A stretch of DNA of 64,000 nucleotides from assembly GCA_965206595.1 (NCBI GenBank), contig OZ242214.1:5568001-5632000 (forward strand). The letters are read 5' to 3'. Below are positions 18,653-22,553 of the stretch, in pieces (the stretch's first letter is position 1; each line of letters opens with the position of its first letter). The position numbers and the translations under genes were made by a program. The notes under the pieces are model-generated. The model was given only the letters and a program-made list of their open reading frames with translations. It did no database searches and was not told the origin of the DNA. Origin of the DNA: Candidatus Latescibacterota bacterium. GTDB taxonomy: Bacteria > Latescibacterota > UBA2968 > UBA8231.

Positions 18653-18769
18653 ACGGCGCCGGGGAACAAGCCGGCGCTCTTTGATTGATCGTGAATTCCC
18701 TTCGGGGCGATGGAATACCAGCTGCCGGCAGGTTGTTTCAGGGGAAGCCGGAGCGCACTTTTCCCGGGT

Positions 18770-19609
18770 ATGAGCGATCGTTCTGAAACGAGCTGGACTC
18801 CCGCGATGCCGGACGTCGATTCGGTGTTCGCACAGTACCCCGATCCGTTGCGCGCCCTTTCAGAAGCGGAGATTCCCGCCATTCTGCTGCCCCGGGTGTA
18901 TCCCCGGGAGGAGTGCGACGGTCTGATCGGGCGATTTGTCGAGCGCAACCTGATGAAGGGCCCGGACGATTTCCGGCCGGGTGACCGGACGCGCATCGAC
19001 ATCGGTACCAGCCTCGGCAATCGGGGCAACGACCGCGAAGGGTTCCTCGCCAGCTCGGCGGCCACTCACGAGCTGTTCTCCACCCTGTTCGACGGCTTCG
19101 ATAACCCGGTACAGCTGATTTACGATTACCTGCAGCGGCTCGGCCGCGGCAAGAAGGTGATGACCGCCCGGGAGCCGGACGGGAGGCGCTACGGGCCGGC
19201 GATCTTCCGCATTCACTACGAATCGCACAGCTACAAACCCCACATCGATCACGTCACCCTGCGTGAAAAGCGGTTCGACTACGCCGTTACCCGCTTCGAG
19301 CACCAGTTCGCCGGCGTGCTCTGCCTGCAGAATGCAACGCGCGCTGCGCAAACCACTCAGGCGCTGCTGCACCGCTGTCTCTGGAGCGGGGAGGTGCAGC
19401 CGCACATCGAGCAGGGAACCTTCCCCGAGTACGCCGCGGTCCACCGGGTGCAGAACTACCGGGTCGATCTCGGTGCGGGAGACCTGTACTTCTTCAACAC
19501 CCGCTGCATCCACGAGGTCCCGCCCGTGGTCGGCAGCGATCCGCGCATCGTCCTCGCCGTGTTCATCGGCTACTCCCCGGACGATCCCGAGATCTTCGTC
19601 TGGTCCTAA
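18770..19609 (+). CDS. Putative 2OG-Fe(II) oxygenase
   Basis: PHIDH (HxD), GDLYFFN...HEV...R pattern. Confidence 0.6.
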   Translation: MSDRSETSWTPAMPDVDSVFAQYPDPLRALSEAEIPAILLPRVYPREECDGLIGRFVERNLMKGPDDFRPGDRTRIDIGTSLGNRGNDREGFLASSAATHELFSTLFDGFDNPVQLIYDYLQRLGRGKKVMTAREPDGRRYGPAIFRIHYESHSYKPHIDHVTLREKRFDYAVTRFEHQFAGVLCLQNATRAAQTTQALLHRCLWSGEVQPHIEQGTFPEYAAVHRVQNYRVDLGAGDLYFFNTRCIHEVPPVVGSDPRIVLAVFIGYSPDDPEIFVWS

Positions 19610-19860
19610 GCCCAGTGGGGCAATCCCGGCGCCCGGGCGGCGGTAGTCCGGCATGCCAATTTCTGGGACAGAACGCACGTCGTTTTATTCTAAGACGCAT
19701 AAAAAACAGCAGTTTGCGGTGCCCTTCCGAACAACCCCCGGTAACGCTGCTGCGGTTGCCGGGTGCGGAGAGGCTGCCTATCTTTGGTGACTCTGAACGC
19801 TTGGCCGCGGGCAGATAGCCTTGGTGCGAGCGCTCCAAACATGACGGAGAACAGGTTCCG

Positions 19861-20295
19861 ATGCCCAATTTCAGCGTCGAAATTCATGACGACGAGCATT
19901 TCGAAAAGGCGCTGCGGCGCTTTACGGTCAAGACCAAGAAGTGCGGCCTGATGCGCGATCTGAAGCGCAAACGGTACTATACCAAACCGTCGGCGCAGAA
20001 GAAGATCGATCGCCAGAAGAACATCAGGAGGCAGAAGAAGGCCGAAAGGTTGGCTGAGCTGGCAGCTGCCGGGATCGACCGTCGCAGCATGCGGGGTGGC
20101 CGGGGAAGGGGCCGAGGCGGTTATGGCAGTGGCAGCGGCGGCGGGTATGGCAGTGGCAGCGGTGGCGGGTATGGCAGTGGCAGTGGCGGCGGGTATGGCA
20201 GTGGCGGCGGCGGCGGGTATGGCAGTGGCAGTGGCGGCGGGTATGGCAGTGGCGGCGGCGGCGGGTATGGCGGCGGTGGAGGCCGCGGTCGTTAG
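19861..20295 (+). CDS. rpsU: 30S ribosomal protein bS21 with long Gly-rich C-terminal extension
   Basis: EHFEKALRRF...GLMRDLKRKRYYTKPS is the S21 signature; followed by RGG and GGYGSGSG repeats. Confidence 0.9.
   Translation: MPNFSVEIHDDEHFEKALRRFTVKTKKCGLMRDLKRKRYYTKPSAQKKIDRQKNIRRQKKAERLAELAAAGIDRRSMRGGRGRGRGGYGSGSGGGYGSGSGGGYGSGSGGGYGSGGGGGYGSGSGGGYGSGGGGGYGGGGGRGR
20116..20283 (+). repeat. Seven tandem 24-bp repeats encoding GGYG(S/G)G(S/G)G
   Basis: Unit approx. GGCGGGTATGGCAGTGGC(A/G)G(C/T)GGC repeated 7 times in frame. Confidence 0.95.
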
Positions 20296-21407
20296 GCCGG
20301 CTCTCCGCTGATCAGGGACATCAGCTCCACCCCGATAAACCGGTTCCGCCAGCCGCGCAGCAGCGCGTGCCGTTCTTCAGTCGCCTGCTCGCCATCCCTG
20401 ACCAGCGCCCTTACTTCCGAGCGCGTCGCCACCAGCGCGTGATCGATCCCCTTGTCGGCGCTCCGCTTTTCCAGAAGTTCGATCACGGCTTTGCTGCGCG
20501 CGGCGAAGGTTTTTTCGTAACGCGACCGCGGGTTCCCGTCGGGCAGCTCTTCCTCAGGAATCTCCAGTCCCGCTTTCACTGCGTCGACAACGGCTGTTCC
20601 GTGGCGGTGCAGGCGTTTGTCCCTGAACCGCAACAGTTCCCCGGTGCCGGCCGGCTTGCACTGCGCAAGCAGTAGCAGCGTCCGGTCGGACATCACCCAT
20701 CCTCGCGGCCGGTTGACTGCCCGCGCCTCGCACTCCCTCCAGGCAGTCAGCTCCCGCAGGACCGCAAGCTCTCGGCGCGAAAGCCGCCCCCGTCCCTTGA
20801 TCCGCTCGAACTGACCGCGGGGCTCGCGTTCCTCGTAAAGGCTCTCGTCGTCGAGGGCTGCCATATCCTCGCACATCCAGCTCTCGACGCCGCGCTCCCG
20901 CGCCCGGCGCAGGAGTTCCCGGTGCGCCGCGTGCAGAAAACGCACATCGTCGAGGGCGTAGCCGATCTGGGTTTCGCTCAGCGGCCGGCGCAGCCAGTCG
21001 GTCCGCGTCTCGGTCTTGTGCAGGTCGACCTCGACCAGCTCGACGAGCAGGTCGCGCAGTGAGATCGTCGAGGAGAGGCCGGCGAAACCTGCGGCGACGC
21101 GGGTGTCGAAGATGTTGCGCGGCGACACGCCGCTGGCGCGCCTGAGTATCGACAGGTCCTGGACGGCGTCGTGCAGGATTTTCGTGACCTTCGCATCCTC
21201 CAGCAGCTGTCCGAGGGCAGCGAGGTCGACGGCCGTGGCGTCGATCAGGTGAAGGTCGCTGTCAGAAAGGGCGAGCTGGACGATTCCGAGGTGTGGGTAG
21301 TAGGTGCGTTCCCAGACCAGTTCGGTGTCGAGCGCGACCAGGGGTTGCCGCCCGGCACGATCGACGAGTGCCGCCAGTTCCGCTTGCGAATCGATGAGCG
21401 CTGACAA
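20292..21407 (-). CDS. rnd: Ribonuclease D
   Basis: ALDTE exonuclease motif, FDT, TDWLRRPLS, YALDDV, HRDC domain. Confidence 0.9.
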   Translation of the reverse strand: MSALIDSQAELAALVDRAGRQPLVALDTELVWERTYYPHLGIVQLALSDSDLHLIDATAVDLAALGQLLEDAKVTKILHDAVQDLSILRRASGVSPRNIFDTRVAAGFAGLSSTISLRDLLVELVEVDLHKTETRTDWLRRPLSETQIGYALDDVRFLHAAHRELLRRARERGVESWMCEDMAALDDESLYEEREPRGQFERIKGRGRLSRRELAVLRELTAWRECEARAVNRPRGWVMSDRTLLLLAQCKPAGTGELLRFRDKRLHRHGTAVVDAVKAGLEIPEEELPDGNPRSRYEKTFAARSKAVIELLEKRSADKGIDHALVATRSEVRALVRDGEQATEERHALLRGWRNRFIGVELMSLISGEPA

Positions 21408-21422: not shown

Positions 21423-22265
21423 CTAGTTCGCTGTTTCCCGAAGCCGTCCCGCGTCGTCCAGCTCGGGACGGTCGAGGCGCCTGTGGTAGGGGGGCTCGAG
21501 AATGGCCCGCTGTTCCGGTGTCATTCCCTCCAGCATCTGCTCGGGCCAGGGCATGTACCCCGTCGCGTAGGCGAGGTTGGCGGGGGTGTAGCGGTACAAC
21601 AGGGAGCGGCGCTCGCGCTCGGAGCGCCAGGGCAGGGTGCCGTGGGTCACCGCTTCGGTGAAGATGACGATGTCGCCGGCGCCGCAGCTGATCGGACGCA
21701 CGATTTCCCGGCGACGGTGCCACAGCTTGATCGGCCGCGGGCAGGCGAAGTTGGCCTTGTGACTGCCGGGGATGAGGCAGAGTCCGCCGTCCCCTTCCTC
21801 GACGTCCGACAACTGCCAGGCAACGACCGTCAGGCCGTTGTGCATCTGCCCGTCGCGGTAGATGTAGTACTGATTGGGGTCGAAATGCGGGCCGGAGGAA
21901 CCGTGCAAGGTGTGCCCCTCGGCTCCCTTGCGCATGGTGATGAGGCCGGGGCTGTGATCCATGCGGAACCCGGGACCGACGATCTGGTTGAGATAGGGCA
22001 CGATGCGAGGGTGGGACAGCATGTGGCGAAACACGTTGCGCCAAGGTTCCTCCCAGCCCAGCATGCCGCCGAGATCGCCGCGGCCCGTCGTTCCCTTGAG
22101 GCTCGTCGATTCACCCGACAGCGACAGGTCCCCGAGGCGGATGTTGATGGCGTCCGCGTGGTGGTCGATCGCGGTGTTGGCGGCGGCTACTTCGGCAGCC
22201 GTCAGCACCTGCTCCACTACGAGGTAGCCGTTGAGATCGAACAGGTACAGCTCTTCTTCGTTCAT
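21423..22265 (-). CDS. Phytanoyl-CoA dioxygenase (PhyH) family protein
   Basis: YLFDLNGYLVV, DGGLCLIPGSHK, GDIVIF..HGTLPW. Confidence 0.85.
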   Translation of the reverse strand: MNEEELYLFDLNGYLVVEQVLTAAEVAAANTAIDHHADAINIRLGDLSLSGESTSLKGTTGRGDLGGMLGWEEPWRNVFRHMLSHPRIVPYLNQIVGPGFRMDHSPGLITMRKGAEGHTLHGSSGPHFDPNQYYIYRDGQMHNGLTVVAWQLSDVEEGDGGLCLIPGSHKANFACPRPIKLWHRRREIVRPISCGAGDIVIFTEAVTHGTLPWRSERERRSLLYRYTPANLAYATGYMPWPEQMLEGMTPEQRAILEPPYHRRLDRPELDDAGRLRETAN

Positions 22266-22553
22266 GGCGGCTCGGTTCCCGACCGACAAGATATCCCCCT
22301 GCCCTTCAGGCGGCCAGGGGGAACCGGTCTGCCTGCCAGCCGTCAAGGTGCCGGTCAATTACTACCTGAGGGTCAGGGATGCGGCATGGCGAAATCAGGC
22401 TGCACCCCGGCATCGCCTACCTCGAGATCAATACCCCGCCGAACCTGCTGCAGGCGCAGGAACCCCCGGGGGAGATGAGGAAGCTCCTGGATCCGGAATG
22501 ACCCTGGGCCGGATCTGCTGCCGACGGAGAAACCGGACTGATCCAGAGGCCTG

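Follow-up and report, generated by a model that had tools for sequence, protein, structure and literature searches.

Bacteria rarely have ribosomal proteins with long disordered extensions, a feature typical of eukaryotes and organelles. Systems built on RGG and glycine-tyrosine (Gly-Tyr) motifs include the glycine-rich RNA-binding proteins of plants and cyanobacteria, the low-complexity regions of FUS and hnRNP proteins and the N-terminal RG region of eukaryotic uS5/RPS2. For the small-subunit protein bS21, the accessible part of one report describes that the Shine-Dalgarno (SD) duplex of E. coli can be located between both bS21 helices within the cavity of the 30S platform, and that in land-plant chloroplasts the C-terminal extension of bS21c, with about 30 unresolved residues, runs about 60 angstroms across the mRNA channel and touches uS7c via four conserved C-terminal residues (10.64898/2026.07.03.736309). 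In Flavobacterium, the C-terminal region of bS21 contacts the 3′ tail of 16S rRNA and its Tyr54 stacks on rRNA, as stated in the available portion of the source (PMC7797042). Bacterial low-complexity domains of the RG/GR type associate with RNA helicase and RNA-metabolism terms, according to the accessible part of another study (PMC11132505). Here we describe the gene rpsU in a 64,000-nucleotide stretch of the genome of a Candidatus Latescibacterota bacterium (contig OZ242214.1, positions 5,568,001 to 5,632,000; hereafter the window). It encodes a bS21 with a normal helical core of about 76 residues, followed in the same frame by a 68-residue C-terminal tail. Our preferred reading is that of a single functional bS21 whose cationic and aromatic tail would serve as a flexible, RNA-contacting arm. 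We give this statement as a whole, including the proposed function, a probability of about 45%, and we regard the gene, its frame and its tail taken alone as nearly certain.

The bS21 gene of the window and its C-terminal tail

The rpsU coding sequence (19861..20295, plus strand) begins at the first ATG downstream of a stop codon and comprises 144 codons and a TAG stop. Residues 5-58 (19873..20034, plus strand) match the Pfam family Ribosomal_S21 (PF01165; 48.2 bits against a cut-off of 27, E 9.1e-13), residues 5-60 match the NCBIfam equivalog model TIGR00030 (S21p; 41.2 bits, cut-off 28.95), and this core aligns with residues 4-60 of the 71-residue E. coli bS21 and with numerous further bS21 chains of solved structure. 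Ribosomal_S21 is the sole Pfam domain of the protein, which is without an RRM or a cold-shock domain. The genome is a single contig of 7,053,161 bp with 63.7% GC, and a PF01165 search of its whole length returned one match, the rpsU of the window. Since this is the sole S21 gene of the genome and its locus is syntenic with the orthologues of relatives, it is the ribosomal bS21 copy, neither an extra paralogue nor a phage copy. The protein is a bS21 by the curated cut-offs, by being the single ribosomal copy and by the helical fold of its core.

Past the core, the frame reads in order the RGG/RG box MRGGRGRGR (residues 77-85; 20089..20115, plus strand), seven 8-residue, 24-bp units of the form GGYG(S/G)G(S/G)G (residues 86-141; 20116..20283, plus strand) and a terminal RGR directly before the TAG stop (20284..20295, plus strand). 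This is the architecture that an earlier, sequence-only reading of the stretch had proposed, and the open reading frame (ORF), the Pfam and NCBIfam matches and Tandem Repeats Finder bear it out. The units succeed one another as GGYGSGSG three times, GGYGSGGG, GGYGSGSG, GGYGSGGG and GGYGGGGG, and Tandem Repeats Finder reports a period of 24 with 6.5 copies at 20116-20271, 92% matches, no indels and a score of 270. The 68 residues comprise 44 Gly (65%), 10 Ser, 7 Tyr, 6 Arg and 1 Met, with no acidic residue. An RGG/RG motif is defined as RGG-X0-4-RGG, or as at least three RG with spacers of 0-4 residues, and the tail follows this pattern with RGG-X4-RGG and four RG dipeptides (R78-G-G, R81-G, R83-G, R85-G-G and the terminal G-R-G-R). 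The likeness to FUS and prion-like domains that had been drawn from the repeats stands as far as the [G/S]Y[G/S] triplets are concerned, seven of which are present as GYG, one per 8 residues. Nonetheless, there is neither Gln nor Asn among the 68 residues, so that the Q/N/S-rich, uncharged composition of prion-like domains is absent and the analogy is compositional only. In this respect the tail is probably nearer to the Gly-Tyr-Arg tails of glycine-rich RNA-binding proteins than to FUS.

An AlphaFold2 model computed from a 26-sequence alignment (A1) places helices at residues 14-28, 30-38, 45-69 and 74-77, with a predicted local distance difference test score (pLDDT) of 72-94 per 10-residue block over residues 1-70. 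From residue 84 to the C-terminus, pLDDT falls below 50 and the model holds no secondary structure. The tail is accordingly predicted to be intrinsically disordered and positively charged.

What makes FUS-type and RGG domains phase-separate is chemistry of the Arg-Tyr and [G/S]Y[G/S] kind, and the tail might be conceived as a condensate or ribosome-clustering module, in which Arg/Tyr contacts set apart by Gly/Ser spacers would permit reversible co-condensation of ribosomes and mRNA, for instance in stress or dormancy. The tail does offer seven Tyr at even intervals and six Arg among Gly and Ser, free of acidic residues, as such a module would need, and the predicted disorder agrees with it. 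However, a single 68-residue tail per ribosome offers low valence, the lack of Gln and Asn makes it not prion-like by composition, no other protein of the genome has a matching tail that could act as partner, and most relatives use fewer contact points, based on Phe. We consider this explanation very improbable.

The tail against base composition, spurious frames and assembly error

The genome was scanned in six frames over all stop-to-stop ORFs of at least 60 residues. At least two GG[YF]G motifs occur in five ORFs genome-wide, with seven in the S21 ORF and two in each of the other four, where they lie scattered in ordinary proteins; the S21 ORF is thus the sole GG[YF]G-repeat ORF of the genome. 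A looser scan, for 30-residue segments with at least 14 Gly plus R/Y/F/S/N/Q/D, returned four ORFs, among which S21 ranks first with 30/30. Because neither scan finds a comparable ORF, the tail is a singular feature and not a by-product of GC content, and both scans rule out a genome-wide compositional effect of GC-rich DNA.

A shadow ORF lies over the repeat in another frame (20096..20311, plus strand); it encodes 71 residues rich in Ala, Val and Met, no homologue search was made for it, and nothing else speaks for a gene there. Since this frame is open too, an open frame alone is no evidence of translation. What speaks for the rpsU frame is that relatives preserve it with different DNA and that all length differences among them are multiples of three (24, 27 and 48 bp). 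An RNA element as the cause of the repeat is disfavoured, as the composition of the protein is retained in relatives whose units differ in length. The RNA of 20090-20300 folds into a slipped G-C/G-U ladder (z = -2.29), and 3 of 200 shuffled sequences fold equally well. An Rfam scan of 19400-20500 gave no match at E up to 1, and thus no known leader or RNA element in that interval.

Perhaps an error of assembly or sequencing, or a missed stop, has created a false fusion, or the tail is untranslated. This was examined with Logan contigs from four public runs compared with the window. Contigs from three different studies start upstream, cross the core and enter the repeats with no stop codon on the way and with 0-1 differences (X1, 19700-20193, 0 differences; X4, 19700-20151, 1; X5, 19700-20169, 1), and contigs enter the array from downstream at 20242 in X1 and at 20224 in X4 and X5. 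The short-read contigs break inside the array and none of the four runs has one that spans it, which leaves the count of seven unconfirmed end to end and not independently fixed; the uncovered parts of the array in X4, X5 and X18 are not evidence of absence. In addition, the exact 144-residue sequence is absent from a collection of 15 billion proteins. Against an error, the unitigs of X1 tile the entire array without mismatch, and among them is a 48-nt piece at 20194-20241 (0 differences) that carries the junction from a GGYGSGGG unit to a GGYGSGSG unit and whose 31-mers occur solely in the duplicated, seven-unit arrangement. As X1 may be the source sample of the window itself, this corroborates seven units but is not independent proof. 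Moreover, independent assemblies encode forms of 120, 128 and 136 residues in the same frame. A false fusion is hardly credible on this evidence; the uninterrupted passage out of the core that had been left to public reads was found in three studies, and the repeat count that had been left to them as well was not confirmed.

The same runs hold some variation. An A>G difference at 20021 in X4 and X5 equals the N54S change of the near-identical protein P0054. At 20241, two short contigs of X1 carry an in-frame 3-nt deletion at a depth of 86 of 187, which may stem from a variant present alongside or from a related organism that has one Gly codon less. In X18, an RNA library labelled sponge metagenome, a 304-nt contig from a close relative covers 19820-20105 with differences at 8 of 286 positions, and its loose end continues into further Arg/Gly-coding (RGG) letters. 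It provides weak evidence that rpsU is expressed in a close relative. Only two RNA runs labelled sponge metagenome hold a relative, each with a small share of words, and X18 alone was compared; no claim on habitat is made.

Relatives of the tail and turnover of its repeats

An S21 match is present in all 41 genomes of the same class that were searched, and ORFs were read at 30 loci, 25 in genomes of the window's own family and 5 in outgroup genomes from other families of the class. The five outgroup proteins have 61-72 residues and no tail. Within the family, six of the 25 genomes encode a tail-less S21 of 66-67 residues, five an 80-residue form with the basic ending ...GLDRRGRKRR, three a form of 84-92 residues with a basic tail, and eleven a form of 93-144 residues with a Gly-rich tail; GG[FY]G is carried by 7/25. 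The long forms share a layout of an Arg/Gly block, a block of Gly with Phe or Tyr, and a terminal RR. The tail, whose presence in related genomes had been left to a comparison of rpsU orthologues, is therefore found in close relatives, and frameshifted or stop-truncated tails were not seen among them. Because the stretch ...GIDRRSMRGGRGRGR of the window aligns with ...GLDRRGRKRR of the 80-residue forms, the RGG box seems to be the ancestral basic C-terminus in modified form, with the Gly/aromatic units presumably added to it afterwards. The comparison shows, at the level of sequence, that the family as a whole has an older tail of the Arg/Gly plus Gly/Phe type, of which the tail of the window is an exaggerated version based on Tyr. 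S21 was found in 72 of 76 species genomes of the family, none of which matched as far along as the 144-residue protein of the window, the longest S21 found in its family.

The order of a WelO5-like gene, rpsU and a convergent RNase D gene was found at 9 distinct loci of 31, each seen with about 1.5 kb of flank, so that misses are uninformative; judged by this synteny, the rpsU locus is orthologous. Nine genomes have two query matches each (G014, G015, G021, G022, G026, G030, G032, G042 and G063); some of the double matches may be second S21 genes, and others match just the Gly-rich tail region. A maximum-likelihood tree of the S21 core (64 columns, with 8 of 26 inner forks open) unites the tail-less genera with support 87/90, at a fork drawn open, and places all extended forms in another group with support 98/93.

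Beyond the class, a word-indexed protein search limited to 79-252 residues gave 52 core homologues, one of them named "30S ribosomal protein S21 [Gemmatimonadetes bacterium]", and a scan of genome contigs with back-translated tail patterns confirmed one distant Gemmatimonadota locus (L032) among the matches listed, at least 602 stretches. By these two finds the lineage belongs to Gemmatimonadota. The anchor IRRQKK was recognised in 53 of the proteins P0001-P0054, 41 of which continue for at least 35 residues beyond it. Their usual form is a Lys/Arg-Gly block leading to GGFG(S/G) units, with GRR at the very end. Two or more G[YF] are present in 33 of these 41 long-tailed homologues and Arg occupies one of the last two residues in 37, from which it follows that the composition and architecture of the tail are evidently kept across genera while its sequence turns over. 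At least two Tyr occur in only 5/41, three of which are near-identical variants of the window's protein, and the genus of the window appears to have swapped Phe for Tyr and regularised the repeat.

The recurrence of the terminal Arg raises the question of a tether similar to that of bS21c, where a Gly-rich spacer would end in a G-R-R/RGR anchor on uS7 or rRNA and bridge the mRNA channel, influencing head-body dynamics or mRNA loading. A terminal Arg pair in 37/41 long-tailed homologues, with a middle that varies freely, speaks for it, as does the precedent of bS21c itself, whose extension crosses the mRNA channel to uS7c according to the accessible part of its description (10.64898/2026.07.03.736309). 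Yet the tail does not resemble the plant extension in sequence: phmmer aligned the bS21c chains 5mmj_u, 5x8p_u and 6eri_BU over core residues 3-61 only. None of the 31 distinct sequences matched in the PDB has a comparable tail. The spacer would also range from about 20 to 68 residues, which is odd for a fixed distance, and the Arg-rich end may simply be the ancestral C-terminus of bS21. Such a tether is, in our view, quite improbable.

Low-complexity tails are also present on quite different S21 cores. When 1.84 billion cluster representatives were searched exhaustively with HMMER, 402 reached E ≤0.001, and among 29 fetched of the 150 listed we found an RGG plus GGF tail (P0091), a GGPGG/GGF tail (P0198), an S/N/G-rich tail (P0123) and an N/R/G/S-rich tail ending in RRSY (P0121, with P0210-P0212; 107 residues, in a cluster named Candidatus Poribacteria S21). 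The ESM Atlas holds S21 clusters with representatives of 108-122 residues, one of them with 911 members, a count made without alignment or structural search. Long S21s thus exist and are annotated as plain S21, and that of the window stands out by the chemistry and regularity of its tail. A full-text literature search, with subscription journals outside its coverage, found no paper on a Gly-rich or RGG tail on a bacterial bS21.

Within the array itself, units 1-3 differ solely at synonymous sites (GGT/GGG at codon 2, AGC/AGT at codon 7 and GGC/GGT at codon 8), and the DNA of unit 3 is identical to that of unit 5, as is that of unit 4 to unit 6. These identities make units 3-4 and 5-6 two identical 48-bp blocks (20164..20259, plus strand), the product of a very recent tandem duplication. 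The synonymous differences had been taken to mean that the repeats are not a single recent slippage, which holds for units 1-3, but not for the duplicated blocks. Whichever 48-bp block is taken out in silico, the resulting sequence is the same, and its translation is exactly P0001 (128 residues). The same 90% cluster contains P0053 (120 residues, four Tyr units) and P0054 (128 residues, N54S, on a 2.38-Mb contig), with the caveat for the 120- and 128-residue forms that short-read assemblies can collapse repeats. In the sister species G001, five identical 27-bp units GGYGSGGGG make up a protein of 136 residues, and G002, of the same genus, has a single GGFGSGGGG followed by RRY in 97 residues. 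The variable copy number that had been anticipated is thus seen as four, five and seven units on near-identical cores, with units of 24 bp or, in the sister species, 27 bp. These unit differences within the genus and the cluster imply that the arrays expand and contract independently, recently and in multiples of three bases. The sequences compared show that the array evidently gains and loses units of 24-48 bp very rapidly, through slippage or unequal recombination.

Such turnover is also what would be expected if the tail were a near-neutral by-product, with an exposed basic C-terminus that tolerates the expansion of GC-rich codon repeats and a composition that reflects harmless expansions. 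This is a serious rival. Length varies extremely, from 66 to 144 residues with loss of the tail within one family, copy number is polymorphic among near-identical cores, and the perfect identity of units in the sister species together with the 48-bp duplicate indicates ongoing slippage; in addition, the long S21s of several phyla have quite different tail chemistries, such as the N/S/G-rich one. Nonetheless, harmless expansion would not easily account for the fact that this is the sole such expansion among all ORFs of a 7-Mb genome of 63.7% GC, that the basic block, the Gly and aromatic block and the terminal Arg recur across genera (33/41 and 37/41), that an aromatic residue returns at a regular interval of 8 or 9 positions, or that the close relatives lack frameshifted and stop-truncated tails. 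We regard near-neutral expansion as unlikely on balance, but as an explanation to be reckoned with.

Proposed function, locus setting and comparison with known systems

The two helices of bS21 would line the cavity of the 30S platform that holds the SD duplex and the 3′ end of 16S rRNA, and because of this the tail would be expected to leave the ribosome beside the mRNA exit channel, bS1 and the anti-SD. According to our preferred reading, it would act there as a flexible arm that contacts RNA without sequence specificity, its Arg residues engaging phosphates and forming cation-pi contacts and its Tyr residues stacking. The arm might help to capture or hold the 5′ regions of mRNAs, or the 16S 3′ end, during initiation, and its reach and number of contact points could be tuned via the number of repeats.

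The translation setting was inspected for a deficiency that the tail might make good. The 3′ end of the genome's 16S rRNA, ...GGATCACCTCCTTTCT, contains the CCTCC anti-SD. Among 2,658 long ORFs with high GC at third codon positions, their first ATG taken as start (a rough heuristic), GGAG, GAGG or AGGA occurs at -20..-4 in 995 starts versus 433 and 436 in control windows, with a GGAG peak at -11; the organism evidently uses SD pairing. bS1 is full length and above its curated cut-off in five of five genomes tested, both tailed and tail-less. With bS1, the anti-SD and SD enrichment present, a tail that compensates for a missing bS1 or for absent SD use is ruled out. The conserved motif of the 16S 3′ end has one match in the genome (G000:C1, near 6119939), and this one pattern search suggests a single rRNA operon.

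Several observations weigh against an RNA-contacting arm. With bS1 at full length and SD pairing in use, no missing function calls for a substitute. Length is highly unstable (120, 128 and 144 residues on near-identical cores), as relaxed constraint would give, and the tail is dispensable in kin, 6/25 genomes of the family being tail-less. The clade of 80-residue forms nests beside a long-tailed genus, albeit in a 64-column tree with several weak forks, and tail losses or repeated gains must therefore have occurred. The sign of expression comes from X18, a metatranscriptome library with possible DNA carry-over, in a contig that ends within the RGG box. Finally, the presence of the tail on the ribosome, its RNA binding and its effect on translation are what we infer.

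A bolder form of the idea would see, beside the mRNA exit and the anti-SD, an RGG plus Gly-Tyr tail in the style of eukaryotes, tuned by its repeats, that lets ribosomes associate with one another or condense together with mRNA (to store it, in dormancy, or for translation at particular sites), or that works on the ribosome as an RNA chaperone changing which mRNAs are initiated. We hold this to be improbable. If it is true, the low-complexity tails on differing S21 cores, one of them from Candidatus Poribacteria, and the rpsU of a close relative in libraries labelled sponge metagenome would point to a selective pressure common to habitats of this kind. bS21 sits where mRNA, the anti-SD and bS1 meet, and an arm of Arg, Tyr and Gly could alter mRNA recruitment or ribosome-ribosome contacts there. 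The locus offers a graded natural series at one orthologous position, from no tail to a basic one, a Gly-Phe one and a Gly-Tyr repeat. Near-identical strains that differ in repeat number form a ready system for studying the function of a tail on the ribosome and its birth by codon-repeat expansion. Even if neutral, the tail would illustrate cleanly how fast a low-complexity region can grow on a protein of an essential machine.

Upstream of rpsU, a putative promoter (19756..19784, plus strand) consists of TTGCCG (19756-19761), a 17-nt spacer and TATCTT (19779-19784). Several genera share the block TTGC(C/T)-N17-CTAT(C/T)TT upstream of rpsU (10 upstream regions aligned; seen at loci L003-L006, L009, L010 and L015), which is likely a promoter and would give a 5′ untranslated region of about 70 nt. 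It fits 8 of 12 consensus positions, which is below the threshold of the consensus scanner, and the scan of 19550-20450 returned 0 promoters and 0 terminators. GGAG, an SD-like core (19846..19849, plus strand), lies 15 nt upstream of the ATG. Downstream, the syntenic, convergent RNase D-like gene (20292..21407, minus strand; 3′-5′ exonuclease and HRDC domains by Pfam) overlaps rpsU by the 4 nt of their stops, 20292-20295 (CGTTAG on the plus strand, TAA on the minus strand), and no terminator-like hairpin was found between the two genes. Since the stops overlap and leave no room for an intrinsic terminator, the transcript of each gene must run into the other. A WelO5-like 2-oxoglutarate (2OG)/Fe(II) oxygenase gene (18710..19609, plus strand), conserved and used as synteny anchor, lies upstream of rpsU, and a PhyH-like gene of the 2OG/Fe(II) oxygenase type (21423..22358, minus strand) lies beyond the RNase D-like gene. 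Two genes of this type thus flank rpsU, and the WelO5-like one, syntenic across genera, is an unusual partner for a ribosomal gene.

Compared with the canonical bS21 of E. coli, the protein of the window has the same PF01165/TIGR00030 core, the same basic fold of two to three helices and the same single copy, but adds about 68 low-complexity C-terminal residues of Gly, Tyr, Ser and Arg. With the RGG and Gly-Tyr RNA-binding proteins it shares RGG/RG motifs, [G/S]Y[G/S] triplets, the lack of acidic residues and predicted disorder. Its composition fits that of the glycine-rich RNA-binding proteins, a likeness of composition and not of alignment, although it has no RRM or cold-shock domain; with the prion-like domains of the FUS type it shares the [G/S]Y[G/S] triplets, but not Gln or Asn. 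The tail probably arose by local repeat expansion in its lineage and not by shared ancestry with these proteins. Chloroplast bS21c is likewise a bS21 with a long C-terminal extension, largely unresolved, which leaves the platform and crosses the mRNA channel; as far as the accessible part of its description goes, however, the extension in plants is not built of Gly-Tyr repeats and ends in a defined site for binding uS7c, and the origins would be independent. In the Bacteroidetes too, lineage-specific changes at the C-terminus of bS21 alter the handling of the 16S 3′ end and of mRNA, there helping to sequester the anti-SD, according to the available portion of that work (PMC7797042). The C-terminal domain of their bS21, as described there, is short, less basic and ordered in organisms that make no use of SD, whereas the tail of the window is long, basic and predicted to be disordered in one that evidently uses it. 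The S21s of Gemmatimonadota metagenome-assembled genomes (100-134 residues) come with a Lys/Arg-Gly block, GGFG units and a terminal GRR. In comparison with these and other long S21s, the tail of the window is the longest in its family, the most regular, and Tyr-based. The bS21 family was already known; what appears to be new is a regular, Tyr-based RGG/Gly tail on a bacterial bS21.

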